Under the pieces are notes generated by a model. The model saw only the letters and a list, made by a program, of their open reading frames with translations, had not been told where the DNA came from and did no database searches. From Yuukianura sp. NJ FZ-2021 (lineage: Eukaryota), in NCBI GenBank assembly GCA_046563655.1, contig CM102290.1, positions 2,790,001 through 2,854,000 on the forward strand: DNA of 64,000 bases, read 5' to 3'. Below, one piece after another: positions 1 through 30,410 of this stretch (its first letter is position 1; every line of letters begins with the position of its first letter). Made by a program: the position numbers and the translations under genes.

Positions 1-759
1 CTCCTCCACGCAAAACCTCGGATTGAGAAAACGGCCCGTCTATAGATACTAGATACATAGGTAGTTTCTTTAAAAAATTTAAAAGAAAGAACAAGAAAGA
101 CAATTTTCCCAACGTTTCTTAACACGAGAAAATCCTCTAATGAAAAGATGGCTACAAGTTTGTCCAGAAAAGGTCGACAACTTATTTATGCAAAATAAAA
201 TTCAATTTCCTTTAAACTTTTCTGTCCATTTCTTTTCTGAGTTTGAGCATAATAAAATTTTTCAAATGGAAAAATGAAAAAGAACGCAGTAGGCACAATG
301 TTATTGGAATCCTTTCAAAAATATTCAACCGTACAATTAAATTTTGTCTACTTTTCTGTGAAAAAGAATTCAAAAAACATTTTTTACCCAAGTTTCTTTG
401 TTAAAAGCTGTTCCGTTTGAACAAGCTTTCAGAGATTCTTTGAGTCGCTACACCTTCTGACATTTCCATTTTTTCTGCTTGTACTAACTCTTTACAGTGA
501 AAGCATTTTTGACTTTGTAGAGAATAATTCTTGTGCTTTCAAAAAAAAATTCTTTCTTTTTTGAAAAAAAAAACACAACAGCTTTCCTTCCGTTTTGGGT
601 AAGGTTAAAAGGAAGAGTTGGATAGCCTACCTTTTGCTCTAAACCAACCAAAAAGAAAAGCCAGAAAATACTTTCGTAATGAAATGCTTTGGGAAGTGAC
701 GGACTGCGAAAGTTTTTACTTTTGTTAGAAGTAAAAATTCCTTGTTTTTTAAATTCTAG

Positions 760-3700
760 ATATCCCCGCTCAGGCCATTCTGGAACTTTTTGGCAACATG
801 TTCTTCGAATTTTGTGTCGAATCTGGATATGATAGAATTCTTCAAGTACTGGGAGCGACGCCTCGTGACTTTCTGCAGGTAATTCCAAAAACACGAAAAA
901 TTATTACTTGGTCTATACTTCATTTGAACATGTTTGAACAGAATTTAGACGCACTACACGATCACTTGTCAACAATTTACCCTGGAATGAAGGCTCCTTC
1001 ATTTCGATGTACAGAGAGACCTGAAGATGGAGGACTCGTGCTTCATTACTACTCTGATAGACCTGGACTCGAGTCCATTGTGATTGGAATTGTGAAGGTA
1101 CGGTTTTCCAAAACTAAAATGTCTAAACGTATTTGAACAAAATGCTCAATTTCTTTTCAAAAAGAGATTTCAAAATTCAAAATGACTTTTCAGTTGGTCT
1201 GTTTGGACCAGAGCTATAAGTAAGATTAGGCGTCTAAAACTGATTTGAATGTGGTAGATAGGAAGTGGACTTTTTGTTTCTAGTGGATACTGAAGTAGGC
1301 CCATGGGGCAGATTAGGCTTTTGACTTTCCCCAACTTCCTGTTTTAGTCAAAAACCCATTCCTCAGACGCTTATTTCAGACTTATGAAAATGTTAAGGAA
1401 GAAGAAACGCTTTCTTGTGCTCATTCCAAACTTGTAATTGAGTTTTAGAAACGATAATCGACTGCTTTAAGTTTTAACGAACTTTCTAGCCCACCTTTCA
1501 AAAAAATGTTACGCTGATCTATTTTTTAAGACCAAGTTTAACTAACAACGTGGCACAACCTAGCCTGTCTGCGCTTTTAACTTATGATGACGTGAGTTTT
1601 AAGCTAAACTTTTCTCAAAATTATTACTATTTTCGAAATTCCTTTCTCAAAAACCTAGAAAGGAATCAAAGGCGAGGTTTTTCCTTATCATAACTTCTTA
1701 AGATTGTCTACTAGTTCATGTATGTTTTATTGATATGTCTAGTGCGGTTGAATAGTATACCTCTGTGTTAGCTTAAGATGATCTTCATTTTTAATCAAAA
1801 AGTTGTTTTTTTTTCTAATTTAAAAAAAAATTCCAAGTTTGAATGAGCTTCAGGATACTTGGCTTTTTCAAGAGAAGGAAATTGAAGAAGAGGGAAAGTG
1901 GAAGAAGTTGTGGAGGTGTTCCGGTGTTGCCTACAGCACAAAACCAAACTAGAATTAAACATTTCTTGGAGTGCTACTAAGGAAAAGCGACAGCATCTAG
2001 GAAACAAGAGCTCCGAGGCCCCCTTTTACTTTTTGATGTTGAAACAACGGATTTTTGCGGGGTTGGTAGAGAAAGGAAAACAAAAGTTTAGAATCCCTAC
2101 GGGATTTTCAATTGATCTCCAGAATGCTTTATCCCAAAAACAAGATTCAAACATTCTTATTTGTAGCTCAAAGAGTCTAACTCAGTTTAGCAGTTTTTTC
2201 TTCACAACTTTGACAAAAACAATTCGTCACTTTTCTTTTTAAAAAAAAAGGAAACGGAAACTTTCTAGGAAAAAATTTGAAAAATTTAACTTTTGTCTCC
2301 CGCCAGATTACGTCTTTTTTCCCTTCCACGAAAGTTTGGCTAGTGTTGAAATGTTATCAGTCAACTTTTAGTCCTTTTAGACAAGTATTCGTTTGAGATT
2401 GTGCTATAAGTCGTCGGAGCGTGGTTTGTTTTTCGATGATTTCCTCGGAGCGACACGACTTAGCGTTGGTTATGTGGTTGGCATAGGGTATTAGCGTTCC
2501 TATGGTTGTAATTTTGTAGAATCAGATATGAAAGAGCTTCATTCGGATTTTGATTCCTGCTTGATGTGATTTCTTCTGCTCAATTTGCACTCGAACTGCG
2601 CAGAACTTCCAACTGCTGCTTGTGAACAGAATGCAAAATGTTGGTTTTAGAACATTTAAAACTTTTCCGCTTATAGAGAAAATTTTAGAGGCGTGGGATT
2701 CTAAATTATTTGTTTGGGATTGCCACTTTAGTGCAGACGCCACTTCCTCAGAGCGAATTTTAATTCGAGATTTTCAGTTTACCAGTGTCTGTGTTAACTT
2801 TGAGTCGATGAGTCGATTGAGCTAATTAAATTGAACCTTAACTTCAGTTTGGTAGAAAAAAAATGAAAGTTTGATTTTAATTTTTTAAGTTATTTAATGT
2901 TTGTTTTTTTCGAAAGTAGAAAAAGCGCTAGACGTTCTCTACGATGAAAGTGTGAACAAACGGAGCGCTGCGGACATTAGGTTCCGGAGGTTGTGTGAAC
3001 GTGTGTAAGTCCAGAACGAAGTAAATTTCTGTGTCCACTTTGAAGTTGATTCTGCGTAGAATTTATGAGGGTTTTGAAACAATTGAAGTGGTCCTTAAGT
3101 CTAGCTAAAGCTGAGCATTATGCTCCACTTTCTCCGTCTCTACATTTTATTGGATTCAATTAAGACTTCTTCCCGCTTTTCTACCGCCTCCTAAAACAAT
3201 CCCATTCCAATCTTAGTACTTCTAAAGCCTCTATCCCCTCATTCTTTTTCCTCATTCCACTTTCTCTTTTCACAATCTCCGTTTCCTTTCTAAAAGAAAA
3301 TATAAATCAACCTGCAACAGCTCATTCTTCAAAAAAACGCTTTCTACAATTTAAATTTACTTTACAAAAAATAATTTATTTCCTCAATTCCGAATCCTAT
3401 TTTCCCTAAAACATCTTAACTTTCAAAATAAACTTCGGAAATCTCCTCTTTTTTCCACAACTTTCGTTCTAAAAATAGTTTTTATCCGCGTAGATTTTAT
3501 CTTGTAAAATGCATTTTCACGCCGGAATGGTACTATGTTTAGTCAAGGGAAAAGCGTTCGGAACTTAGAAAAAGGATTTATAAGTGTCACACTTTAAGAC
3601 AAAACCTACGCAAAGTGCTGGAAATGATTGTCAACAGAATAGAAAACGGTGTTGGAAAGTATTCTAAAAGAAAAAGTTTGAAAAAAAACTCATTTGGGCG

Positions 3701-6700
3701 AAATTTTCAAGTTCCTTTTCTAATCGATTATTGTTTTTTGTCTTGTGAAGGCCGTTGCAAGTAAACTGCATGGAACAGAAGTGGAAGTGTCAGTTCTTCA
3801 GTCAAAGTACGAAGTTGTAGGAGCAGATCATGTTCAATTTTTGATCTCTGAGAAGAAGGATGTGAATTGTAAGGAAGAACTCCTCATTTCCCCCGATGCC
3901 TTAACACAGACGAACTTTCCCTTTCTTTCCTCCGGTAAGTTTCTAATTAATCTCTGTCACATTTCACTTTTGTTCTGCCTCAAAAACCATCACATGCTTC
4001 CTCATCGAACCAAAGAAAAACAACGTGCTAGAGCAGAAGCATTGCGAGATTCCTGGTTCCCTCATCACACTTTTTACGTTCTTGTTCTAAACGTGAGTAA
4101 TAGCTACAATATGAAAAAGGAGATAGAAAAATGTTTGGTTCTTGATGCTTTCTCTTTTGTCACGTCACGTAAAGTTACGCTAGCTCAACCTTACACATCA
4201 TTTTCGCCATGTTGAAACAACTTTTCTGCGAAATGCACAATTTTATGAACTTTGAACTCCCAGGAAATAATCTTGGATGAGAAATGGAAAAAAAAGCTTA
4301 TTGTTGGGATGAGCGAAGCAGAAATTGAATTCCAGCTAGATCACAATCACAAAAAGTTGTTGAGATGCTGGCCAGTATACCGCGAGGGGCCATAACGATT
4401 GGACCTTCCAGAAAGCTTGATTTCACAAAACAATTTCATCCATGACTAGGTTACCACAAAAAGAAATTTATTTTTTCAAATTCGAACTTATTTTTGAAAA
4501 AAAAAAAACTCGAATAGGGACACAATGATGATTTTGGCACATAACCGTAAAAGTTGAAAACGGAGAAAGTAGAACAATGCTTAGAGTGAAGTGGATAAAA
4601 AAGGAAGATGAATGGGCGGGGATTTGAAAATGGGCGAGTTGGCGGTCTTCCCTTATTTTTCATTGTGTCATCCATCATGCCCAGTTCTGACATGACACTT
4701 GGCCCAATTGCCCAACGGTGGAACAGTGTCCACAGCAGCATCGCTTTCACGTTACCACTCCTGTTCCTGCTAATTCCAGTTTTTGGTTCAAAAAAATAAT
4801 GAAAAGATGAAAAATGTTAGCAGTGACCAGAGTTCCGGACTCCTTTAAAAAAATCTCAGAATTAATGTTAATAAACTTCTTACAAAGACGATATAAGTAT
4901 CGTCAGATCAAGAAGGACTAAGCAAGGTCTGGTTCACAGTAAAATTTTTATATTCAAGGGACCAGACGGACGGACGAACGGACAAGACGATCCCTATAAG
5001 TATCTGACTATACTTAATAAATTTTCGTTAAAAGCGTAGAGTTAGCTAAAAAGCCAAGCCAAATTCAAAGACTCAAAATCGCGTTACATTAATAGTGAGC
5101 AAGGTTTGTTGACTTGTGATTTTGTTTAAGAGGTTGAGTAGTACCTCATGTTTTTTTGTTCGATTTTGCAAGAAAAAGTATGTTTTCATTTCGGTGCACC
5201 GAGTCATAACAATACAGCCAATTTTTTTTAATTTTGCATACGAATTGGTACGAATTTTTCGGATAAAAATGGTGCTAAATTTGTACTATTTTTTTGTTAG
5301 TTTTTTTCGTCTTTTTTATTGTTAACAAGCGAGTTAATGCCAACCTGTTAAAGAAAATTAACTTTTCGTTGTCAAGGAACCTTGACAGTGAGTTCATTGA
5401 TATTGGAATTTCGTATCGAATTTTGAAGGACCAGGAAAGCTTTAGTGCCCAAAAAGATGGACTGGGGTAAGGCGAGACTTACCCTGATGTGGCCAAGATG
5501 CCCTTCAGATGCAGCCTAGAAAAAACAGGACTGGAGAGGTCATTTGAGCTGACATGGATAGAACGCTAGTTAAGGTTTCTGGGTGCACTGAAGCATAGGA
5601 TTCGCAGATTGACTTTCCATGTTATTCCTGGTTTTACTTTACTTAGGAAAGGTCATGATGACAATAGATGAACTCCACTTTTTCTTACTTAACGACAATC
5701 CCTTCATCTTTGTCTCCCAGGACTCCTGCGTCTTCATTCCCCTGCTTTCTCCCAATTCCAAACTTTTTCGAAAACATTACTCTTTGGTAAGGAAAAGATT
5801 TCTAAGAAAAAATTCAAATGTACTTTCGATTCTTTTGTTCTAGAACCAAAAATCAGTCCTGAGACATTCTGCAAAGCGTTTCCGTTTCATCTCCTCTTTG
5901 ATCGAAATATGATTGTTCGTCAAGCTGGAACTGCCATTTCACGTGTCATCCCTGAAACTTGTTCCAACTGCAGCGTACTTGATATTTTCGACATGGTATT
6001 TCAACAATTTAAAAAAGTTTTTTGAAATTTAAAATGAAAGAACGTTGAATTTTTTTTTTCAGGTGCGTCCACATATGGACTTAAATTTCACAAATATACT
6101 TTCGCATATCAACACAATTTACGTTTTGAGAACAACAAAACCACTGCTTGCACTGGAGTATGCCACTCCAGAACTTCTTCTCAATGAGCATTCACGTATG
6201 AGGCTCAAGGTTAGTCACTCATGTCAAATATTTTGAACTCTGATAAGATGCAGTGTCGAGTTTTGTTACGGCATTAAAAAATTTGAGTTTAGATACAATT
6301 TTACCCAAAATCAAACTCGAATTGAATTTTTGCCCTTGTAACTGTCAAAGAGCGGTTTTTGTGAAACGCAAAATCCTCAAAAGCGTTTCGCTTCCCCTGG
6401 AGTGCTTTGAAGTTGTAACTGCTATTCGGCATGTTGGCGGAACATTTTGAAATTCCCAGGAATGACAGAGAGTGGGAATACGAAAGTGTCGTTCCAGCTT
6501 GGCACCACTTTCCGAAAAGCTTTAAAGGACCATATAGTCTCCAATGGTTCTGAATTATGGATCCCTGGCGTATTGACGCTTCCGTGGCACAAATACAAAA
6601 TGGAGTCATCGGTCTCCAAGGCCGTTAAAGGCTTTTCGGAAATAGAAACTAAGGGTTTCCCGGACAGGAAGAGGGAATCATAAATTCGGAACCACCAACA

Positions 6701-8696
6701 AGATACGTTGGTGTTGAGACACAAATAGGCCAATTGACCAGAGGGAACTTCCAGCAAGAGGAAACTCTTGAAACTGAAAAAGTTTTCCCAGAATGGTTCC
6801 AGGATTACTCAATCCTAATTCCAAAGATTTACGGACTTTCACAGGGGTTTTGGGAACGACAATGAGTTTGGCTATAAATTCAACCACCTCAAACTCATCC
6901 TGTTGCTTCAAAATGGAAATTTAGTGGAGTAGATGAGCTAATTACAAATAGGCTACAGATTTTGCCGGAATTTGAATTTTCTGAAACATTTGAAAGTTTT
7001 TTTTTATTTTGATTTTTTGGGTGATATTTTAACCAGGGAGAGATGCTGTACGTGGCAGACAGTGACATGATGCTTTTCCTATCGTCACCATCAGTGACAA
7101 ATTTGGATGACTTGACACGCCGTGGCCTGTACTTGAGTGATATTGCTCTCCATGATGCAACGAGGGATTTGGTTCTGCTCAGTGAACAGTTTGAAGCAGA
7201 GTACAAGTTGACACAAAATTTGGAAATTTTGACAGACCAGCTGCAACAGACGCATCGGTAAAGTCGCTTTTGCTTATTAAATTCCCAAGGTTCTTTGACA
7301 ATCGAATTGTATTTCCTACAACAGGTTGTCCAATAACTCAGGGTTTTCAAAAATCTTGCTTCAAACAACTTTTAGCACCAATCTCATTTAGGTTACATGC
7401 AAAAAGTTACAATAGAAAGACAGATTTGCTACTTTTAACAACTTCTAAAACTTCGAGTTATTGGACAACCTGGTGTAGAAAAAGTTTCCTTTTTGTTTAC
7501 GAAGTTTGTTAAATTACCAAAATGAAGTTTTAGAAAACTGACAATGAAATTTATTGCTGCAGGGAGCTGGAAACTGAAAAACAGAAGACGGACAACTTAT
7601 TGTATTCAGTTCTTCCCGCCACTGTGGCCAACGAACTTCGTCATCAGGTTTGAACATAAAATTCAAAAATTTATGAGAATCGCCATTATTCGAAAATATA
7701 TAATGTAAATTAACGAAATAAGTAACATAAAAAGTTATTTTGCTTTTGACAAACAGAGACCAGTTCCAGCAAAACGCTATCCTTGTGTGACACTTCTGTT
7801 CTCGGGGGTCGTTGGTTTCACGCAGTACTGTGCCCGAAACTCCAACGCGCCCATGCGCATCGTTCAGCTTCTCAATGCCATTTACACCACTTTTGATGTT
7901 TTGACAGATCCCAAGAAAAATCCAAATGTTTACAAGGTAAGTTGCACAATAGTAATCAATCAACCTGACCAAAATAGGTCAAAGCTTAGCTAAACCCTAA
8001 CATTAATTTTTTACTTTAATTCTATTAGGTAGAAACCGTTGGTGACAAGTACATGGCTGTCAGTGGTGTTCCGGACCCTTGTTCTTCACATGCTAAGTGC
8101 ATGGCTGCTATGGCTCTAGACATGATGGATTTAACGGAACAAATTAAATACGAAGACATGGACGTCGTAAGTGTTTGCTTTAAAAAATTTATAACAAAAA
8201 TTAACAAGTTTTTCTGAATTCAGAAAATCACCATTGGAATACATTCGGGAGAAATCGTGACAGGAGTAATTGGTCAGCGCATGCCACGGTATTGCCTCTT
8301 CGGAAACACCGTAAATCTGACAAGTCGTTGCGAAACGACTGGAGCGCAAGGAAAAATAAACGTATCCGAAGATGCTTACAAGTAACGTAATACGATTTAC
8401 GCATCTGTGCATTCCATTTTTCACCATAAGTTCATATCACTTTCAGGTTGCTTCAGAAAGGAGAAAACTTTGATCCATCGTTTCACTTTGAAAGTCGCGG
8501 TCCAGTTCAAATGAAGGGAAAAGCCGAACCTATGTCCATGTACTTTTTGGCCCGGAAACCACCACAGATAGCCATCGAATCTCCAACGGCCTCTGTGGAC
8601 ATTGACCTGGACCATTTAGTTGACCGTAACCTTGAAGACGACAGTCTCCGAAGTGACATGACCCCTTCTCCAGAAGTGACCAACTCCAAAGCCTGA
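760..8696 (+). CDS. Gycbeta100B: Soluble guanylyl cyclase beta-1-type subunit (NO receptor; H-NOX, PAS, coiled-coil and cyclase domains); 5'-partial
   Basis: Exons with GT-AG boundaries and consistent phase: 760-878, 942-1097, 3751-3934, 5844-5995, 6063-6209, 7037-7257, 7563-7647, 7757-7936, 8029-8166, 8224-8381, 8447-8696. Motifs: NLDALHDHL (heme His105 equivalent), HYYSDRPG (YxSxR), [62 protein letters not shown] has Gly for the metal-binding Asp, as is typical of beta subunits. GLESIVIG has Ile at the 145-equivalent site, indicating the NO-selective type. The first ~60 codons lie upstream of the window. Confidence 0.96.
4830..5020 (-). mobile_element. Possible short non-autonomous Helitron/Helentron-like (DINE-1/HINE-type) remnant in an sGC intron
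   Basis: (GACG)n-like tract gacggacggacgaacggaca at 4965-4984; the minus strand reads ...tacttatagggatcgtcttgtccgttcgtccgtccgtctg. Small hairpin GACGAT-ataagt-ATCGTC at 4887-4904. The resemblance is from memory of the element architecture only. Confidence 0.3.
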
Positions 8697-8759
8697 CATA
8701 AGAAGAAAAAGCGCAAGTCCAAGGAATGTGGACCTTCGTCCTTCTGCTCCCTACTGTAA
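8697..8759 (+). other. Candidate stop-codon readthrough extension of sGC-beta: HKKKKRKSKECGPSSFCSLL* (polybasic + CaaX)
   Basis: In frame directly after TGA (8694-8696) with +4 C; ends TGC TCC CTA CTG TAA (CSLL*). Confidence 0.7.
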
Positions 8760-9308
8760 CATTCCTTGTTCCTAACATTCCTAAGCCACGTCAAATGTTA
8801 CATTGGTGCTAACAATGAGCAGTTACAAAGTCCACAGCCTCCAAAATCCAAAACGTCGACACTTCACATTAGGTCACCAATATGTTTCCAAACGGCACCA
8901 AGATCTAGGTCACTACCGTTAAACATTTTGTCCCTTCAAAATCAGCGCCAACTTACAAGATGTCGTTCCTCTACAAAACGACTGTCATTAACTTAACTTT
9001 ACAACCTAACTTGATCACAGTTGTAAAACCGTAAGTTGTAATGGTAGGCAGGTCAAAGCCACCTACTTGTCTCCAGAGCGTAAAGATTTCTACTTTGACA
9101 ACATGTAGGACGACAAGAGACAATCAAGAAGGGACATTTGGTCCGTTCCGCCTCGTCTCAACCAATGTCCTTGTCCCTACCAACACAATTTTTCATAACA
9201 ATGTAACCAGTACAACATAATAGTATATAAACCAAAATCATAGAAAAAATAACATTTTAACTTTAGCTTTTTAAGTTGCAACTGTAGGGCGCTAAAAAGA
9301 AGTGATTA

Positions 9309-9314
9309 AATAAA
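9309..9314 (+). promoter_or_regulatory. Candidate polyadenylation signal of sGC-beta
   Basis: AATAAA about 610 nt after the stop, followed by T/GT-rich sequence. Confidence 0.4.
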
Positions 9315-10713
9315 ACCTTGTGATTATTATAGAATTTGCTGAAACGGAAAGGTCATGTGAGGTCAACTTTGATTGTTTACGTTTTTGAGGTGTTAAGTGG
9401 TCACTTAAAGTCTAGCTAGAGAGTGTGTAGATAATGGACAGAACTGTTTAAACTTTTATGCTCTCCCGATCACCATCTTCCCCCCTTAGGTTTAGTAGTA
9501 TTTGTCTCTACTTTAAGTTGTTACATACAAAACAATTGAATCTCAACAGAATCTCTTTTGCAAATCTCTTCAGAATGTTTAAGGTTGACGTAAAGAGAAG
9601 GAGGGGGACTGAGGAGGCTTCCTTTGGCCAAGTGCCTGGTAGTTCAAGTGAGCCTTTTTGCACAAATCAGTATTTTGCAAAAGGTGAAACTGCAATGTGC
9701 TACCTTCTGTGCTCCGTCAATCGAGTAAAATTTTGCCACAAAGTTTCTATTTTCTGAGAAAGTTTAGACAATTCAACAAGTGATTTTCTGTGCAAATTTT
9801 TGTGCAAGAAACCTTTAGCGGAAAAAATCACTTTTTTGACATTGGCAATTTTTTACATAAGTTTTCCCCCTATTTTTAGTGTTTAGCTTTCTCCAGTTTT
9901 CCGAAAGTTCCAAATTTTGAGTGTTCTAAGAAATAAAATTTGAATTGCAAAAGTTATAAAATTCAAAGTGAGTTTTGACACTAAGCACGAAAAATTGTTT
10001 TGTAGCAAGTTTTTTTTTGTGCAACAAAACTTTTAGGGTGTAGCAAAAGGAAAAGTACTTTTTTCAGAAATTTTTCAGCTAACGTGTCTCCATTGTCCAA
10101 AACCAAGTGAAAACAACTGTAAACTTTTGTAAACAAAAAATAATTGAAGGAAAAAATGGCATGAAAGTGAACAATGAAAATGTAAGTTCCAAGAAGCCGA
10201 AAACGACAAAACTGTAAAAAGTGACAAGCGTGAGAGTAAGTAAATTATTGGAATTGTTTGAAAGGCAAGTTGAACGACTGTTAATAATTGTTGAATCCAT
10301 TGTTATCCTAAGACAACAAAAGGATTTTGTAATTTTTATACTTCGTTGTCGTAAGGCTGTGACAACGGAAAACATCATCTCTTTCACATTCACTTCAAAA
10401 CTGAAATTAAGAACCGAAACACATCAAAAAATTTAAAAAAGAAAAGAAAAAAAAGCCGTTATATTTGTTTTTTATCTTTGTGCAAATATTGAGAAATCTT
10501 ACTACAACTTGTGGTTTACTGCTTTAGTTTTCTTTAAACTTGATTGTTTCTTATTCTCAATAATAATCTGTCAATTTTTTAAAAAACTTTTTTAAAAAAA
10601 TTTTTTTTAATTATTTTTTGAATTTTAGCCAACTTCGAACAGTCACAACACAATTCTACAAGCAGGAAAGAATTTAGCAACGCTGTCAACCGGAATAGAA
10701 TCGACATTTCAAA

Positions 10714-13700
10714 ATGTCCGCTCGCGAAAGAGCAGTGATTTATGTCGACTCAAGTTCTCCATCACTGTCCAGCCTCAACTCATTGTCCAGTTCATCTTCA
10801 TCGCTGGTCGGATCAAATTCACTTAGTGGTGGAAAACTTGGATCCTCTGGAGGGAGTAACTATGTTATCAAAATTCAAATTGGAGAAGAGGGAATATTCA
10901 ATCGACCTGTACGAATTGACGTCGCTGGAGCAAACAGCAGACAACGGAAACAAATTCATCATATCAATGCATCATCAGATGGTGATGCCGATTCGTTGTC
11001 ACAACTAGACAGTAGTGGTCAATCGTCACCCAGAAGTGACATGACCCCACCGCCTCCTCAGCGACACAATGCACAGGGAACGGTACGTCACGGTCCGTCC
11101 CTCTGTCGGTTTGGTTCGGAAACTAGTGAATCCGATACTGAATCGGATATTTCCGCAGAGTATCCCAATTCCATTCACTCGTCAGACAGTCGCTGCTCAA
11201 CATCCGTTTCCGTTAGCTCCGCACGACAAATGGTGACCAATTCGATTTTGGCGGGAGTTCCGTCGTCGAAATCGTCTGATACGGCGGCGCAGTTTGCGCG
11301 ACGTGAAATATTGGGTATAGATGCCATGGAATCTGGAACATTCAACTGCGAATATACAATACGACAACATGAAGACAATGACAGTGGCTACGGGTTTGAG
11401 GATCTGTCGGTGCTTAAGGAAAGCCTAAATTCAAGTTTGATTAAAGCATTTTCAGCTCAACAAGGTGTGACTGGCAAATCACTGCCACCTTTTACCCAAC
11501 CGACTCACCCGGACACTGGAACAGGTCAAGACTCTGGTGACCTGAGGTCAATGTCCTCTTTGATTTCACCGCGCATGTCCCCATTAGTAACAGAATCTCT
11601 CCTGAAATCCAAAACTCCGCTGTCCCGAATCCCCGAAACGGAACAACTCCTGACCTACGCACCACGCAAAATTCAAATTGACCAAGAATCGTTTCACTTA
11701 CAAGAGTTCAAAGAAGACGATGATCCGTCGCCAGCCTGCGCAGAATCCAATTCTTGTTCGTCTACAATAAATTTTGCTGGATACAAAGACATTTTTTCTA
11801 GGGCGCATGTCCAAGGTCCAACACAAATTATGAGTGACAAAGGAACGATACGTGGGGTCAAGAATCGGGTTCGAGATGGAATTGCAACTTTTCTGCAATC
11901 AACTGATTCCAAGGTGAGAGAAGACTGTTTTATTTTTGAAAAAAAAAGATTTGCTCAAGTCATTTAGTAAAAGTTTTGTACAATTTTCAAATTAAGGACT
12001 CAACTTTCTCCTCAGTTTCTCTTATAGTCTGTTGGTGACTAATGACAGCCTCATCATGTCTCATCTGTGAAAGATAAATTTTGTTAAAATTGTCAATTTC
12101 AAAACATTGAAAATTCAACAATCGGGTTGAATATGAAACAGAAGAATGGGAGAGTTGAAAAGGGAACTTTTGCAAATTTGTAGCAAATTTGCAAGTAGTT
12201 GTTGGCCCATTGTTTGCTTTTCTGTGTAAAATCTTGCTCCACTTTCGACAGCTCAAATTTCAGTGGCATTTGATGCATCTTTTCTCATGTTCTTCGTCTG
12301 TAAGGAGATGATGATCAAGTAGATTCTATTTCTACTCTGTAACAAGAAGAAACTGCTCCTGAACATGAAGTTACAATTGATAAATCCCGTAATTATTTTG
12401 AGTTACTCAAATAGAAAAGAAAACAAAGGTCATTCATCATTCGTTCCGAGAGCTCAGGTTTTTGGACAAGAGAAATTTGAAAAAGTTCAACTTTTCAAAA
12501 CACAAACAAACGAGAGAAAAGATTTTTGTTTTGCATTTTTTTGTTACATGTACATGTTTAACAATGAGAAACAAGGACGTAAGAAAAAAAAACTTTTTAG
12601 TATTTCACTCTACGTGCACAATACTTTTACAAATTTACTTTCACAGAATTCTGTAAACAATTGAAATCAAATTTACCAAAAGTGGGTCAAATGCAGTTTA
12701 ACAATGTTGCTCGTCAACTCTTCCACGAGTTGGTTACCATTTAAGGTTAATTTTTATGTTGGTTTTAAGATTTTTTGGCGAATTTAATTCGAAAACAGTA
12801 GAATTTTGGTCATTGTCGTAACGAATTTTTTTTAGACACTTTGTATCTAAATTTTGGCTTTCCTTTTTTTGAAATTTTTAATCCATCTATAAAAAATAAT
12901 TTCCATTAACCAAAATTTATATGTAAGAGTTTTCGAAAGTTTAGAAATTACTTGGTAAAGTTACCACAATGATACGTTTAAGCGTTAAACTGAAAAAAAG
13001 AGTACTTTTGTATTTTTTTTCAAAATTTGTGAGTTGCAAATAGCTGTTTTTGTTCATAATTTTTATGCTTATATAGACGTCATACTCATTAACCTTGATT
13101 ACAGTAAAAGCGATTAAAAAAAATTACCCTGTAAATCTAAAGATTCGTTAAGTTTTGCTCGTAATAGTGATGATACCCAGAATCCTAAGAATAAAGATGA
13201 CAAATCCCTGTCCAAAGTTTACTAAATTGAAAAATTTTGGCAAGGTTTTTGAAGATAATGCTATTTTATGTTATGTGATTTCCAAATTTATGCAGAATTT
13301 TACAAAGAGGCTACTGACAGGATAGGAATGCGCAAGGGCGCAGACTTCCTTTTCACACGCCCCGACCAAAATGAAAAACATGCTTCACCAGGTTTTTGAA
13401 TTATAGAGTTGAGAAGATGCTTTTCCCGAGGTCATTTGCTGAACTTCCACTCTAGGTCAAGATCAGAGTTAACCCAACCATTGAATTAAGTTTTTCAAAA
13501 GTCTTAATCCGAAAAGGAGTCAGTTTGGTTCTGACAAGAAAAAAAAACAAGTTCTAGTACCAAGCGTTTTTTGGACAGTCATCTTTTCATCTTGAATATT
13601 ATTGTTATTAATCCTTGGATTAATGCATCACTGCTCACTCCTTCTTCTTCCAAAAGGCATTTACACTCTACTCCTTTCAACAATGAAAAACTTTAATTGC

Positions 13701-16700: not shown

Positions 16701-19700
16701 TATTTTTTTGGAAATTGCATCTTTGAAGAGTCTTTGAGTTGTCAATTAGTTTCGGAAAAGTTGGCAAAAAAGTTGTTTTCACACACCTTTAGTCCGGAAA
16801 TAGTTGATAAAGCAAGTTAATATTTTAGCAAAGTCATTTTGATTTTGAAAAAAATGAAGTTTGAAACGAAATGAAGGCACTGAACAGAGTCCGTCACACA
16901 GAGGCAATCTTGCATGAGAACCTAACAGTAAAAAATTATTAAATCGATTTAATGCTTAAATGTTCATTTAAGAAAAGCAGTAACTTATGGAGGAAAAAGA
17001 ACAATCACAATTAGAGAGACTCTCAATCAAATCGTACTAAAAGGAAGTTTTATCTTTTGGTGAATGGCACGTGCTTGTGAACCAAAAAAGTGCAAATTTC
17101 GAACTCTTAAAATTTCTAAGTTGTTTCACAATTAGGAAATGAAGTACTTAGACTATGACCTGACTCAATTTTTCATAAAGATTTTCTCGTCTCGGCATTT
17201 TTATGTTTTATTTTTTTGTGTCAGGTCACCTGTGAAGATGTCAATCACCACGCAATTGCATAGCCTATTTTTAGGTTAATGTTTTTGAACTTCGTCAATT
17301 TTATGCAATTTAATAACTTTTGTACAAATCGAACCTCGCTTCGTAATTTAGCAACAATTCCAAGATTTAAAACTAGAAAATTTGGAACTTTACTTCAATT
17401 GTTGTAAACTTGACATTTGAAAATTTTAGTGTGAATTTCCTGAAATTTTTTTTCTTAAAATTTCCTAACAAATTTTCCCACAATTTTGTTCCTGTAAGGG
17501 AAAATGTGCATGTTGTGAAACTTTTAAAGGTTTGACGTAGTCGTGATTTAGTACTTTCCAGATACAAATTTTTATGTGACTAAATGCAAAATGAGAAGTA
17601 GCTATGTGTTCACCCAAGGGTACTTCAAGTGTTTTATAACAAAAGATCAAAAGTGATACGGATTTGCAACGCATCATTTGTAATTTGTCTTGGATTTTGC
17701 TGAAGTTCACACTGCAGAAATGCAGACAAGTGACAAGGAAATTCTCTTTTTGCAAACCTACGCGCCATAGAAAACGCTCGCAACAATAAATTTTTTAAGC
17801 TTTTGAAAATTCTTGACTTTTAAATAAAAATTTATTCTGTGAAAGTCACCCAAGAGGTAAATTCAAGGTTTAAAAATTTCTCTTCAAGTCATCCAACATT
17901 GAATTTTGGTTGTTTTAAAGCGTCGCGCCAAATTTAAGCAACGGTAAATTCAAATGTTTTTGACTGAAGGTTAAAAAACTTGAAAAAACTTTCAGTCAAA
18001 GGCTTTGATTACTAGTCAAAGATTTTGTCTAAGACTTTCAGTTTTTTTCAGTCAAAAACGTTGGGTAAAGAAATGAATATTCATCAACTAGAGTTCCATT
18101 TTGATTAATTTAGTAATAATTGAAGTAATGCAGTTGTTGCTATGGAAACGGCGATGAAGGTTGTGTTTGAGGATTTGAGATAATTTTGAAAAACAAAGCT
18201 CAGGTTCAAAATTTTTTTCCTCGAGGGTCGCTTGGCTGTCAGGTTCGTCTCACTGCTCGTGCTCACAAATTTTCTTTGGATTTTTCCAAATTTCTTGGAA
18301 GGTTGGACCGTAGTTATCCTCGTGGAACGCTAGTGCTCATCATGTCTTTTCAAAAATTCCCCGTTGCTCGAGTAAATGAACTTTCAAAATTTTTTTTACT
18401 TTATGAACTGACAACCCCAGCCATTTCGTATGATTAATCGTTTGTCATTATGTTGTTAATTTGTGGTTGTGGTGGTGGAACGCAAGGGAGTGTCCTGGTC
18501 ACTGACTCGTTCCGTAACTTCGGCTGTCTCTATACTAATTGATGTTTCTTGTCTGCCTTACAGAATTACAATGAGAAGGAGCAAGGTCGTGTCGTGGTGT
18601 ATGTGACGAGCATGGGAGTGGTTCGTGACACTTACCAAAGATGTCAAAAGGTCAAGCAGATTCTGAGGAATTTGTTGGTCAAATTTGATGAGCGGGACTG
18701 TTACATGAACCAAGCTGTCCAAGAAGAAATTCGTGACAGGTTTCCACTGGAGATGCGTCGAAAAGAGTATCAGCGTCAAAAGGAATTGAACAATGGCGTC
18801 AGTCTCGGTTTTCCACGCGGAGCCTCTCGAACTGAACAAACAGCCACGTTCTTTGACCTGGTCACCCTACCACAAGTTTTCGTTGAAGGACAGTACTTGG
18901 GTGTAAGAACTTTTCAAAATTCAAAACTACTAAAAAGAATTTGAAAAAATATACAAAACTGTTCTTTTTATTGCTCAAGGACGCAGAAACGATTGAAAAA
19001 CTTAATGAGAGCGGTGAACTTCGCAAAATTCTTCAGCCTTACAAGGTAAACCACGCCTTTTCGAAACGTTTGATTTATTTTTGGGCATTTAGTGATAGGC
19101 ATTTTCGATGTTTTATATATTTGGTTACAGTCGTTTGAAAAAAGTTTCAAAATTTTAAGTTTTTCTTGGGTTTAGGTTGCTAGTTTTCGAACACCAGTCT
19201 CATTCTAAAATGGAAGTTGATTATATAAAATTTTAGTTTTTCATTTCCACTGGCGTCATTTTGACCTAATGACATTATATTGAGGTCATTCAAAAAAAAT
19301 ACAATCCGAATTTTCACAGAACACTGCTTGAATGTTGTAAAGCTTTCGGTTGAAGATTTGACCTGATTGGCGAAAATAAAAACCATCTTCTCTAGTAATT
19401 GCGTAGTTTGACACGTAGGGTAAACACGCAGCGCCACAATAAAGTTCACAATGTTTTATATTTCCGAAATTTGAAATTAGGCGAAGAAGTCGGAATTCCA
19501 CGCATTGGCAATTGGTCACCCCTACTTTCTTTATTTTCCCTCATTTAGATAGAACATGTCAATAAATCAGGGACCTGCGGATTTGCATTGCGTATCCTGA
19601 GGGACTTCGTGCAGTTCCCCACATTGCCAATGACAATGAAAATGAAAAGCAAAAAAGAAGAAATGAAAGTGTTAATTAAAAGTCTCTAATTCATTCTCGT

Positions 19701-28511: not shown

Positions 28512-30410
28512 TTACGAAAGTTCTGGATCGGGTTTACACTCTGTTTGTCGTCGATCGGTGCAAACCGTCTGCAAATAAACACCAAAATGTTAAATCAAGT
28601 TGTGCTAACTCTAACTGAGCAAAACGTTTTAAATAGTGTGTAACAAACCTGGTGATTAGGCCAGTCTTTCTTCTGACAAAATGAGGAGCAATAATGTACT
28701 ACATGACATCCAGAACATTCCAATGTCCCTTCTCTTCCACAGTTCTCACACTGGAAACAAAATGGCCGAATATCAACTGGGCGATAAGTATCCTGAATTA
28801 ATTTTGGTAATTTTAACTTGCTTTGAAAGTTTTAATGTAATAAAGGGCATAAAGTGTAAAAAGTCAAAAATTGAGAAAATACCTGCGCAATGCTTACAGT
28901 GTTCGTCGGCAAGGGTTTAAAACTATCAGGATCCAATACTTCAATTGAGTAGGTTTGAATTCGATTGGAGTCAAAAATCCGTAGGATCTGAGGTTGTCCT
29001 ACGATTGGATTCTGAACCAATGTCGTTTGAACCGAGTTCTGGAGTTGAGATCTGAGACTTTCTGCCTCTTGATTTGTTCGTTCCTTTATCTCATGAAGTA
29101 AGGTCTTCAAAGTGGCAGAAGCATTAACGATTCCATCCACGGCCTGCAAGAAGGATACAGTTTTATTTAACTGAAGACTTGAAACACCTTGGATACTTAC
29201 ATCTTCCACTACTTTCCAAGCGTCTTGAGTACACGGCGGCAGGGTAACTTGTGTAACTTTTAAGAGGGACTGTGCCAAGGGACTGAGACTCGATGCCAGT
29301 GTGATTGGTGCTACCGGAGTTGTAATTATATCCGACGATTCATCTGTATTTGAATCCTTGGAAGTTAGCCTCTCAAGCTTTGTTCCCTTTGAATGATCCA
29401 TCCCTTGGCACTTTCTCTTCCTTTGGTATGGTGTGAATGGTCGGATTGGTCCGGTCTGATCAAAAAGCGACATCATGCAAATAATTTATGTTTTGGTAAA
29501 TGTTTTTAGGAAAGAAGAAACGATAAACTTACAGCTGTAGCGTCATCCACACAATTGGAGCAAATGCAACTCGATGCGTGGGGAATAAGAAATCCTTTGT
29601 CGATTAACGTTTGAAGTGTTCTTCCTCCGAATCGAATACTCCTCTTCCAATCTTTACTGTTTCCTCGGCCGCACAATGCTTCAAATTCTGTTGGAGTGAA
29701 CCAATCCGTACCAAGCTTAATACATTTCCCTTTGTTTCCAGATCCAAACTTGGACTTGTGCAGTTCAGCATTTGTGTCCTTGCAACGAATGGGCAATATT
29801 GGAGCTGAAACTGCTTCTTCCCACGTTAAATGAGAATTACATTGTTGTTGTTCAGATGAATGCGTGGCTGAGATGACTTGCTGAATAAGTTGTGAATCTT
29901 GCGATTGCTGCATCGGTAACGAGTCATCAGCCAGTGATACAGAAATTGTCCCAGTTCCATTCTGAAATTCACAAAAAAAAAAGTAAATCTTAAGCCTCCT
30001 TCCAGATCAGATGCTTTGTGTCGTAAAAGATGAAATCGAACTTGTCATCTGGTTTTCGCTTAATCAAAACACCTCAAAGACATGTAACATTGTAGAGGGA
30101 GTTAAATGCATACTTTAACTGATATTGGGAATCGTTAATCACCACTTACAGTTTCTGAGTCAGCTATGACAGTATATGGTGTGAGAGATCCTACGGGAAT
30201 GGTAATGATGGTATTGGGTCCAGGGTTTTCATCGTGGTGGTTGTCCATAGCCCCACCTGAATGATGCTGGACATTGTTGTGGTGGGTGTGGTGCTGCTGA
30301 AGTGGATCCACCGTTTCGACGAGGGTGGTGTCAGAAGTACTGATGTCAACCAAATTGACTGCCTGTTGTGTAACTGTTATACTAGATTCGGGTACGACTG
30401 TTACCATCAT
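28512..30410 (-). CDS. Deaf1: Deformed epidermal autoregulatory factor 1 (SAND domain + MYND zinc finger transcription factor)
   Basis: Exons 30150-30410, 29533-29961, 28898-29455, 28649-28750, 28512-28568. SAND domain [27 protein letters not shown]...[36 protein letters not shown] (NLS); [41 protein letters not shown]. The start codon is the least certain part. Confidence 0.93.

Follow-up and report, generated by a model that had tools for sequence, protein, structure and literature searches.

The soluble guanylyl cyclase (sGC) beta-1 gene of the springtail-clade animal Yuukianura sp. NJ FZ-2021 most likely undergoes programmed readthrough of its UGA stop codon, which would add a polybasic geranylgeranyl anchor to the C-terminal end of the encoded subunit. 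The gene lies near the start of a 64,000-nucleotide stretch of DNA (assembly GCA_046563655.1, contig CM102290.1, positions 2,790,001 to 2,854,000, forward strand). This whole stretch is termed the window, and all coordinates given here refer to it. Behind the stop codon of the gene are in-frame codons that encode a Lys/Arg block, an internal Cys and a terminal CaaX box, and the same arrangement is found behind the same stop in two related loci. The pattern of substitutions between these sequences makes it highly probable that the extension is selected coding sequence. The full chain, i.e. readthrough, a prenyl anchor and a membrane isoform of the nitric oxide (NO) receptor, is given a probability of about 0.65.

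The stop codon and the extension behind it

The frame at 8430..8696 reads ...SPEVTNSKA and closes with GCC TGA C. An earlier note on this DNA had placed the end of the sGC-beta open reading frame (ORF) at this point and had counted 20 further in-frame codons up to a TAA at 8757-8759; the coordinates and the peptide match exactly. The parts of the gene, with the basis of each assignment in brackets, are listed below. L001 and L002 are the comparison loci introduced further on.

753..8381, plus strand: upstream exons of the sGC beta-1 gene (tblastn of springtail beta-1 proteins and Pfam)
8447..8594, plus strand: conserved part of the last exon, with the final section of the catalytic domain and the beginning of the tail (ORF reading; comparison with L001)
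8595..8693, plus strand: variable acidic linker of 33 codons, net charge -6 (comparison with L001)
8694..8697, plus strand: first stop TGA with C at +4, a candidate leaky stop (ORF reading; TGA-CA in 3/3 species)
8697..8756, plus strand: 20-codon post-stop extension, HKKKKRKSKECGPSSFCSLL (in-frame translation; comparison with L001 and L002)
8700-8723, plus strand: polybasic block of the extension (translation)
8727-8729, plus strand: conserved internal Cys (ECG) of the extension (translation)
8745-8756, plus strand: CaaX box CSLL (translation)
8757..8759, plus strand: second stop TAA, where conservation ends (translation; comparison with L001)

Between the basic block and the CaaX box there are 8 residues, which include the second conserved Cys; this internal Cys (ECG) is eight residues upstream.

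The TGA is present in the Logan contigs of all three runs that cover it (X1, X3 and X4), with no difference listed over 8404-9223. These runs represent a single sample, possibly the one from which the assembly itself was made. The X3 contigs differ from the window by 12 letters and 9 gaps elsewhere in 7458-10000, so that X3 seems to represent either another haplotype or a separate assembly. An assembly error at the TGA, a concern raised in the earlier note, is excluded, as three independent assemblies of three species have the TGA.

The comparison loci L001 and L002 are JGI metagenome contigs that were found via alignment of the last exon, and both are multi-exon beta-1 orthologues. The end of the ORF, the first stop, the extension and the second stop of the three sequences are as follows.

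Window: ...EVTNSKA, TGA-C, HKKKKRKSKECGPSSFCSLL, TAA
L001: ...GVPEPKP, TGA-C, HKKKKRKSRDCGPSSFCHIL, TAG
L002: ...NNENKDP, TGA-C, QEKKKSKRKSRECGSSTLCSLL, TAG

All three have a common layout: a variable linker, TGA-C, a polybasic-Cys-CaaL peptide of 20-22 codons and a stop. The first stop is TGA-CA in 3/3 species, and the second stops vary (TAA, TAG and TAG). In each case the extension continues the frame of the upstream ORF, and conservation begins at the codon directly after the stop. The CaaX boxes are CSLL, CHIL and CSLL, in the order in which the loci are listed. The Cys at position -4, the Leu/Ile at -2, the terminal Leu and the internal Cys of the ECG motif are kept in all three. The best eight-residue stretch upstream of the CaaX box has 7, 7 and 6 Lys/Arg residues, and the net charge of the tail is +6, +6 and +5. 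The last 33 residues before the first stop are acidic in all three species (net charge -5 to -7).

Between the window and L001, the extension is identical in 16/20 amino acids and has a nucleotide identity of 0.75, with 10 synonymous and 5 non-synonymous differences (proportion of differing synonymous sites, pS, 0.79; of non-synonymous sites, pN, 0.106). The catalytic end of the last exon at 8447..8594 shows 41/49 identical amino acids and a nucleotide identity of 0.75, with pS 0.78 and pN 0.108. The 33-codon linker before the TGA has 6/33 identical amino acids and a nucleotide identity of 0.39, and the 240 nucleotides past the second stop are at the random level, with identities of 0.18-0.24. 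Thus a conserved island stands between two diverged regions. Comparison of the extension with that of L002 gives pN 0.20 and pS 0.84 for the window, and pN 0.27 and pS 0.99 for L001. By codon position (first, second and third), differences in the extension number 3/2/10, 5/2/14 and 8/2/16 in the three pairs. The third-position excess (10/15, 14/21 and 16/26) has binomial P values of 0.0085, 0.0018 and 0.003. The sole indel in the extension, found in the L002 alignment, is 6 nucleotides (2 codons) long and in frame.

Judged by these substitutions, the extension is constrained as a coding sequence. As synonymous sites are saturated, the conserved island cannot be put down to recent common descent. 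The earlier note had predicted that relatives would show a conserved TGA-C, a conserved CaaX box and synonymous-biased substitution between the two stops. TGA-C is seen at the same junction in both L001 and L002, as is the CaaX box, and the substitution bias is evident against both loci from the pN and pS values and the third-position excess. No frameshift or loss of the CaaX box is seen in these two orthologues.

The same note considered a bipartite signal of this type to be unlikely in random untranslated region (UTR) sequence. Base rates in the window agree that it is rare. The six frames contain 5531 stop-to-stop segments of at least 4 amino acids; a strict CaaX is at the end of 36 of them, and CaaL or CaaF at the end of 17. 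Seven or more Lys/Arg within 8 residues are found in 6/5531 segments, and a strict CaaX end together with at least 5/8 Lys/Arg in 2/5531, one being the extension itself. The pattern frequency is about 1e-5 per stop, if the CaaX box and the basic block are assumed to be independent. Such rates alone are not decisive across many gene ends; at the level of sequence comparison, it is conservation and not the base-rate count that shows the extension to be more than chance.

The beta-1 gene and the distribution of the extension

The cyclase gene is a multi-exon gene of the sGC beta-1 type on the plus strand, and most of it is at window positions 753-8696. Tblastn with three springtail beta-1 proteins as queries (P0001, P0003 and P0004, from Allacma fusca, Orchesella dallaii and O. 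cincta) places exon blocks near 753-1112, 3730-3930, 5843-5998, 6063-6209 and 7034-7258, and further blocks near 7561-7647, 7751-7942, 8029-8151 and 8218-8381. Exon 1 is before the window start, and the upstream exons in the window cover the protein from residue ~58 onward. Residues ~58 to 609 are tiled along the window, with ~73% identity over the tblastn segments, a value that includes intron read-through. The last exon starts at 8447 and is preceded by a real acceptor, tttcag, at 8441-8446.

Pfam domains are found on successive exons in the order PF07700 HNOB (E 8.6e-26), PF07701 HNOBA (E 3.6e-25) and PF00211 Guanylate_cyc (E 2.5e-21). The frame at 753-1136 has the heme-ligating His as well as HYYSDRPGL, which contains the heme-contact motif Y-x-S-x-R. 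The best protein matches of the gene are proteins named beta-1 by their sources.

A tree of 30 rows was constructed with IQ-TREE (quick search, LG+G4, SH-aLRT support). The window gene pairs with L001 (support 100), to which it is 93% identical over 374 columns, and L002 groups with two Orchesella proteins (support 89). The window, L001, L002, Orchesella and Allacma form one clade (support 100), apart from insects, crustaceans and chelicerates. Springtails belong to Pancrustacea. With the window and L001 on one branch and L002 and Orchesella on another, the extension therefore spans at least two branches of the springtail clade. By sequence matches and tree position the window gene is an orthologue of the NO-sensitive sGC beta-1, in a tree that contains beta-1 rows without paralogues.

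A short acidic motif, S/D-V-D/N-I or V-D-V, is common to the otherwise variable tails of springtail beta-1 proteins. It is seen as SVDIDLD in the window, SDVDITLL in Allacma, SDVNIG in Orchesella and SEVDVTL in L002.

By the comparisons made here, the extension is lineage-restricted. Nine other metagenome loci, from other invertebrates, have beta-1-like last exons (L003-L011, of which L006 and L007 are alike). Their stops and stop contexts differ, with TAG-G, TAA-G in three loci, TGA-T, TAG-C, TAA-A in two loci, and TGA-A. None of the nine has a polybasic-CaaX sequence after the stop. The metagenome set comprised 20 loci; weak matches of no more than 32 residues (L014 and L016-L020) were left out, and L012, L013 and L015 were rejected as comparison loci since they do not look like beta-1 tails. 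A Cys at -4 is found in 0/121 proteins of the beta-1 search (P0001 to P0121, one fragment included). Among 49 further fragments from a representative search, two have a C-x-x-x end, without a basic block, and these look like frames running on into non-coding DNA. A scan of viral_contigs showed no relative.

Three database searches were made with the protein sequence read through the stop. They gave 1, 1 and 50 matches, the 50 being from a representative library. All were protein bodies or last-exon fragments of relatives, and no match reached query residues 84-103. The annotated springtail beta-1 models that were seen all end at the first stop, and therefore standard annotation would miss a long isoform.

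Other C-terminal motifs are conserved among beta-1 orthologues. An E-x-I-V/L end is present in 23/121, where the named rows are mostly hemimetabolous insects and some rows are unnamed; a T/V-C-D/E-V/I end is present in 7/121 (six molluscs by name and one unnamed). These motifs could be scaffold-domain ligands. If so, this would suggest that lineages have found solutions of their own to a more general theme, the placement of beta-1 by its C-terminus.

The route past the stop codon and the predicted anchor

It is proposed that most ribosomes would terminate at the UGA at 8694-8696 and yield the ordinary cytosolic subunit, which ends in the fast-evolving acidic linker. A minority would decode the UGA, with its leak-prone C at +4, with a near-cognate tRNA. 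Readthrough would add 21 residues, one at the stop and then HKKKKRKSKECGPSSFCSLL. Under the polybasic-CaaX rule, a tail of the geranylgeranyltransferase I (GGTase-I) type has Cys at -4, an aliphatic residue at -2 and a terminal Leu or Phe, with a Lys/Arg cluster no more than about 20 residues upstream. The CaaX Cys would be geranylgeranylated by GGTase-I, if the rules for Rac1, Rap1 and K-Ras4B-type tails apply; removal of the three terminal residues and methylation of the Cys would follow. The Lys/Arg block would interact with acidic lipids in the inner leaflet of the plasma membrane, and the upstream conserved Cys (ECG) may gain palmitate. The variable acidic linker would be a flexible tether, comparable to the hypervariable region of small GTPases. 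Because beta-1 is the obligate common partner in the heterodimer, readthrough would place a set fraction of the NO receptor at the membrane.

From the sequences we infer that the stop is passed by readthrough, that the product is prenylated and that it is located at the membrane. Programmed readthrough is the preferred reading because the TGA and the C at +4 are conserved, constraint starts at the next codon, the frame is the same in 3/3 species and the second stop is variable. Such a signature has been used to identify functional readthrough in flies and mosquitoes, where conservation of a leaky context is taken to indicate that the organism needs the long form (PMC5100048). The same work presents abundant readthrough as characteristic of Pancrustacea; in A. 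gambiae and D. melanogaster it affects at least 5-6% of stops (PMC5100048).

It should be pointed out that several observations weigh against programmed readthrough of a selected extension. A stimulatory RNA structure past the stop was looked for, but the folds are not better than those of shuffled sequences (z -1.3 and -0.4), and the three-species consensus fold is weak (-5.35 kcal/mol). We take UGA-CUAG to be the strongest known leaky context, and the context here differs from it beyond the C at +4. The readthrough rate may be low, because no stimulatory structure is found and the context is not UGA-CUAG. Codon usage of the 20 codons is between coding and non-coding, with a log-likelihood ratio of 0.6; among open non-coding windows 15% score at least this high, and among coding windows 3% score no higher. 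In Allacma and Orchesella, the annotated beta-1 proteins, which are models that close at the first stop, have no CaaX box at their end. The comparison comprises three sequences, of which L001 and L002 are from one metagenome and are assigned to a taxon by the tree. Lastly, AG dinucleotides at codon boundaries just past the TGA in all three species make an alternative 3' splice site possible.

The last point raises the question of whether the tail, though coding, is reached by alternative splicing, with an in-frame exitron over the linker and TGA removed in some transcripts. The AG dinucleotides are 6-9 nucleotides past the TGA in 3/3 species (CATAAG/AAG, CATAAG/AAG and GACAG/GAG, with the slash at the codon boundary), and GT dinucleotides at codon boundaries are present in the linker. 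However, these candidate acceptors come with AAG/GAG codons and lack the pyrimidine tract and CAG of the real acceptors in this gene, and no donor keeps the same position between species. Splicing also leaves unexplained both the constant TGA-C and the conserved block that abuts it, and no protein in the three database searches has the tail joined to a beta-1 body. Splicing is thus an unlikely route. A specific micro-intron, from GT at 8653 to AG at 8702 or 8705, was rejected as the frame is not kept.

A comparably low probability is given to the possibility that the tail is translated via a leaky stop but does not function as a membrane anchor, being either a harmless by-product or, with KKKKRK, a nuclear localization signal (NLS) or a degron. 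KKKKRK does resemble the classical monopartite NLS. Functional NLSs are present in Drosophila readthrough extensions (PMC3840789), and the idea that constraint merely avoids toxicity has been discussed (PMC5100048). The conserved leaky context argues against a mere by-product, however, an argument also made in PMC5100048. In addition, the Cys at -4, the aliphatic residue at -2, the terminal Leu and the position of the second stop are kept in 3/3 species, and these would be needless for an NLS or a harmless peptide.

The UGA might instead encode selenocysteine, or be edited to UGG by an adenosine deaminase. An in-frame conserved TGA together with conserved coding sequence is also a selenoprotein signature, and A-to-I editing of stop codons occurs in other systems. 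A selenocysteine insertion sequence (SECIS) element was searched for in window 8400-12500 and in the whole of L001 and L002, and there is no Rfam match at E<=1 on the relevant strand. The residues beside the TGA vary (SKA, PKP and KDP) and no redox Cys is nearby, which disfavours selenocysteine. As for editing, there is no double-stranded structure around the stop, and the A that would be edited has a 5' G, the least favoured neighbour. Both are regarded as very improbable. Least credible of all is that the 3' UTR contains, by chance, an open frame resembling a polybasic-CaaX tail: the signals are short, very many gene ends are scanned and the codon usage is not clearly coding, but chance is contradicted by the same peptide past the same stop in three species with saturated synonymous sites and unalignable flanks, as well as by the low base rates in the window, and misassembled copies of one sequence are an unlikely source of L001 and L002 at 75% nucleotide identity.

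The odds seem slightly in favour of springtails having kept an ancient programmed UGA readthrough in the beta-1 gene, by which a fraction of the enzyme becomes geranylgeranylated, possibly doubly lipidated, at the plasma membrane. If true, this would be, within the literature searched, the first known stop-hidden lipid anchor in which all parts of the signal are conserved between species. How much NO sensing is cytosolic and how much is at the membrane would then depend on the stop context, and cells might adjust this ratio. The idea lends itself to direct testing, since every element of the predicted bipartite anchor is maintained by selection behind a conserved leaky stop.

Neighbouring features and known systems

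The 3' UTR of the cyclase gene contains a 44-nucleotide block (window 9060-9102) that is 88.6% identical to L001 at ~3706-3750 (E 1e-10), and the other UTR sequence is unalignable. The block is absent from L002 and is without predicted structure; it may be regulatory, e.g. a microRNA or protein binding site. AATAAA is found downstream of it, at 9309 and 9932. A SNORD74-like Rfam match at 9155-9207 on the minus strand (E 0.16) is below the gathering score and was taken as chance.

A cyclase intron has a very high-copy repeat at 7285-7500, with a summed contig depth of up to ~140,000 versus ~200 in the flanks. Its diverged copies number in the hundreds, and a short interspersed or miniature transposable element is the probable source. 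This is the only part matched by run X2, which is from a second study and carries a second organism label. Just downstream of the cyclase gene is an uninterrupted frame of 422 residues at 10699-11967 on the plus strand; it is Ser-rich, starts with MSARERAVIYVDSS and has no Pfam match at E<=0.001. Further along, there is an exon with a glutaredoxin-like domain at 18543-18941 on the plus strand (E 4.2e-10) and an exon with a SAND domain at 29509-30006 on the minus strand (E 2.4e-29).

The predicted anchor is of the type found in K-Ras4B, Rac1 and Rap1, where a Lys/Arg cluster is upstream of Cys-x-aliphatic-Leu and is preceded by a fast-evolving flexible linker, as is the case here. There is no sequence relatedness to the small GTPase anchors, however: a search of PDB sequences with the extension tail gave 0 matches at E<=10. 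The anchor here would also differ in being on an enzyme subunit and behind a stop.

The closest parallels for the stop itself are the functional readthrough genes of Drosophila and Anopheles, comparative candidates of the PhyloCSF type (PMC5100048, PMC3840789). These show the same coding constraint past the stop and a conserved stop with a leaky context; they are from the same Pancrustacea lineage, and their extensions also contain short targeting signals. In contrast, the window locus is from a springtail-clade animal and its arrangement is represented by three sequences.

Hidden peroxisomal targeting signals of type 1 (PTS1) that are exposed by readthrough provide a parallel for the use of one mRNA to make a major cytosolic and a minor relocated form, as in mammalian LDHB (PMC4359377) and in fungal and animal cases (PMC5100048). 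In LDHB-type cases a short UGA context sets the ratio of the two forms, as is proposed here. The target differs, as it would be the plasma membrane, reached via a lipid anchor, and not the peroxisome, reached via a receptor.

Stop-hidden targeting is thus known for peroxisomal and nuclear signals, and two motif-server predictions in print were found for lipid anchors. These are Syx17 of Drosophila (PMC3840789 Table 2) and MT1C of Arabidopsis (10.1101/2021.11.09.467898), in which, as here, a CaaX-type signal becomes C-terminal after readthrough; the Syx17 prenylation prediction is repeated in a review (PMC4973966). Prenylation signals in readthrough extensions have therefore been predicted before, and the concept is not wholly new. 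The two predictions are without a polybasic block or a guanylyl cyclase, and Syx17 has a positive PhyloCSF score. The window locus is unlike both in that the CaaX box, the polybasic block and the extra Cys are each conserved in three species. No published link between readthrough and guanylyl cyclase was found among the 20 of 61 papers listed, a search in which a fly or mosquito beta-1 entry in published candidate lists could escape. Two of the 20 name both subjects, a review on muscular dystrophy (PMC3886293) and a volume of meeting abstracts (PMC2377328), and judged by their listing neither makes the link. A full-text search found no paper that combines Gycbeta100B and readthrough, and the main text of two 2026 preprints on Drosophila readthrough is without prenylation or Gyc genes.

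Of interest also is how sGC is placed at membranes in mammals. Recruitment of the mammalian alpha1beta1 and alpha2beta1 enzymes is via partners, with alpha2 associating with PSD-95, and there is Ca2+-dependent association as well; membrane-associated sGC is reported to be more NO-sensitive and to respond to lower NO (PMC9914232). This review has 0 mentions of prenylation or readthrough. An isoprenylation tail on the beta2 subunit, cited as a precedent in the earlier note, is confirmed by PMC8200204. That mammalian tail likewise directs a fraction of a 'soluble' cyclase to the membrane, but it is constitutive and belongs to another paralogue (PMC8200204). If the readthrough anchor proposed here is real, membrane placement of the NO receptor would be encoded in the beta-1 gene itself in one old hexapod lineage, whereas mammals use partner proteins.

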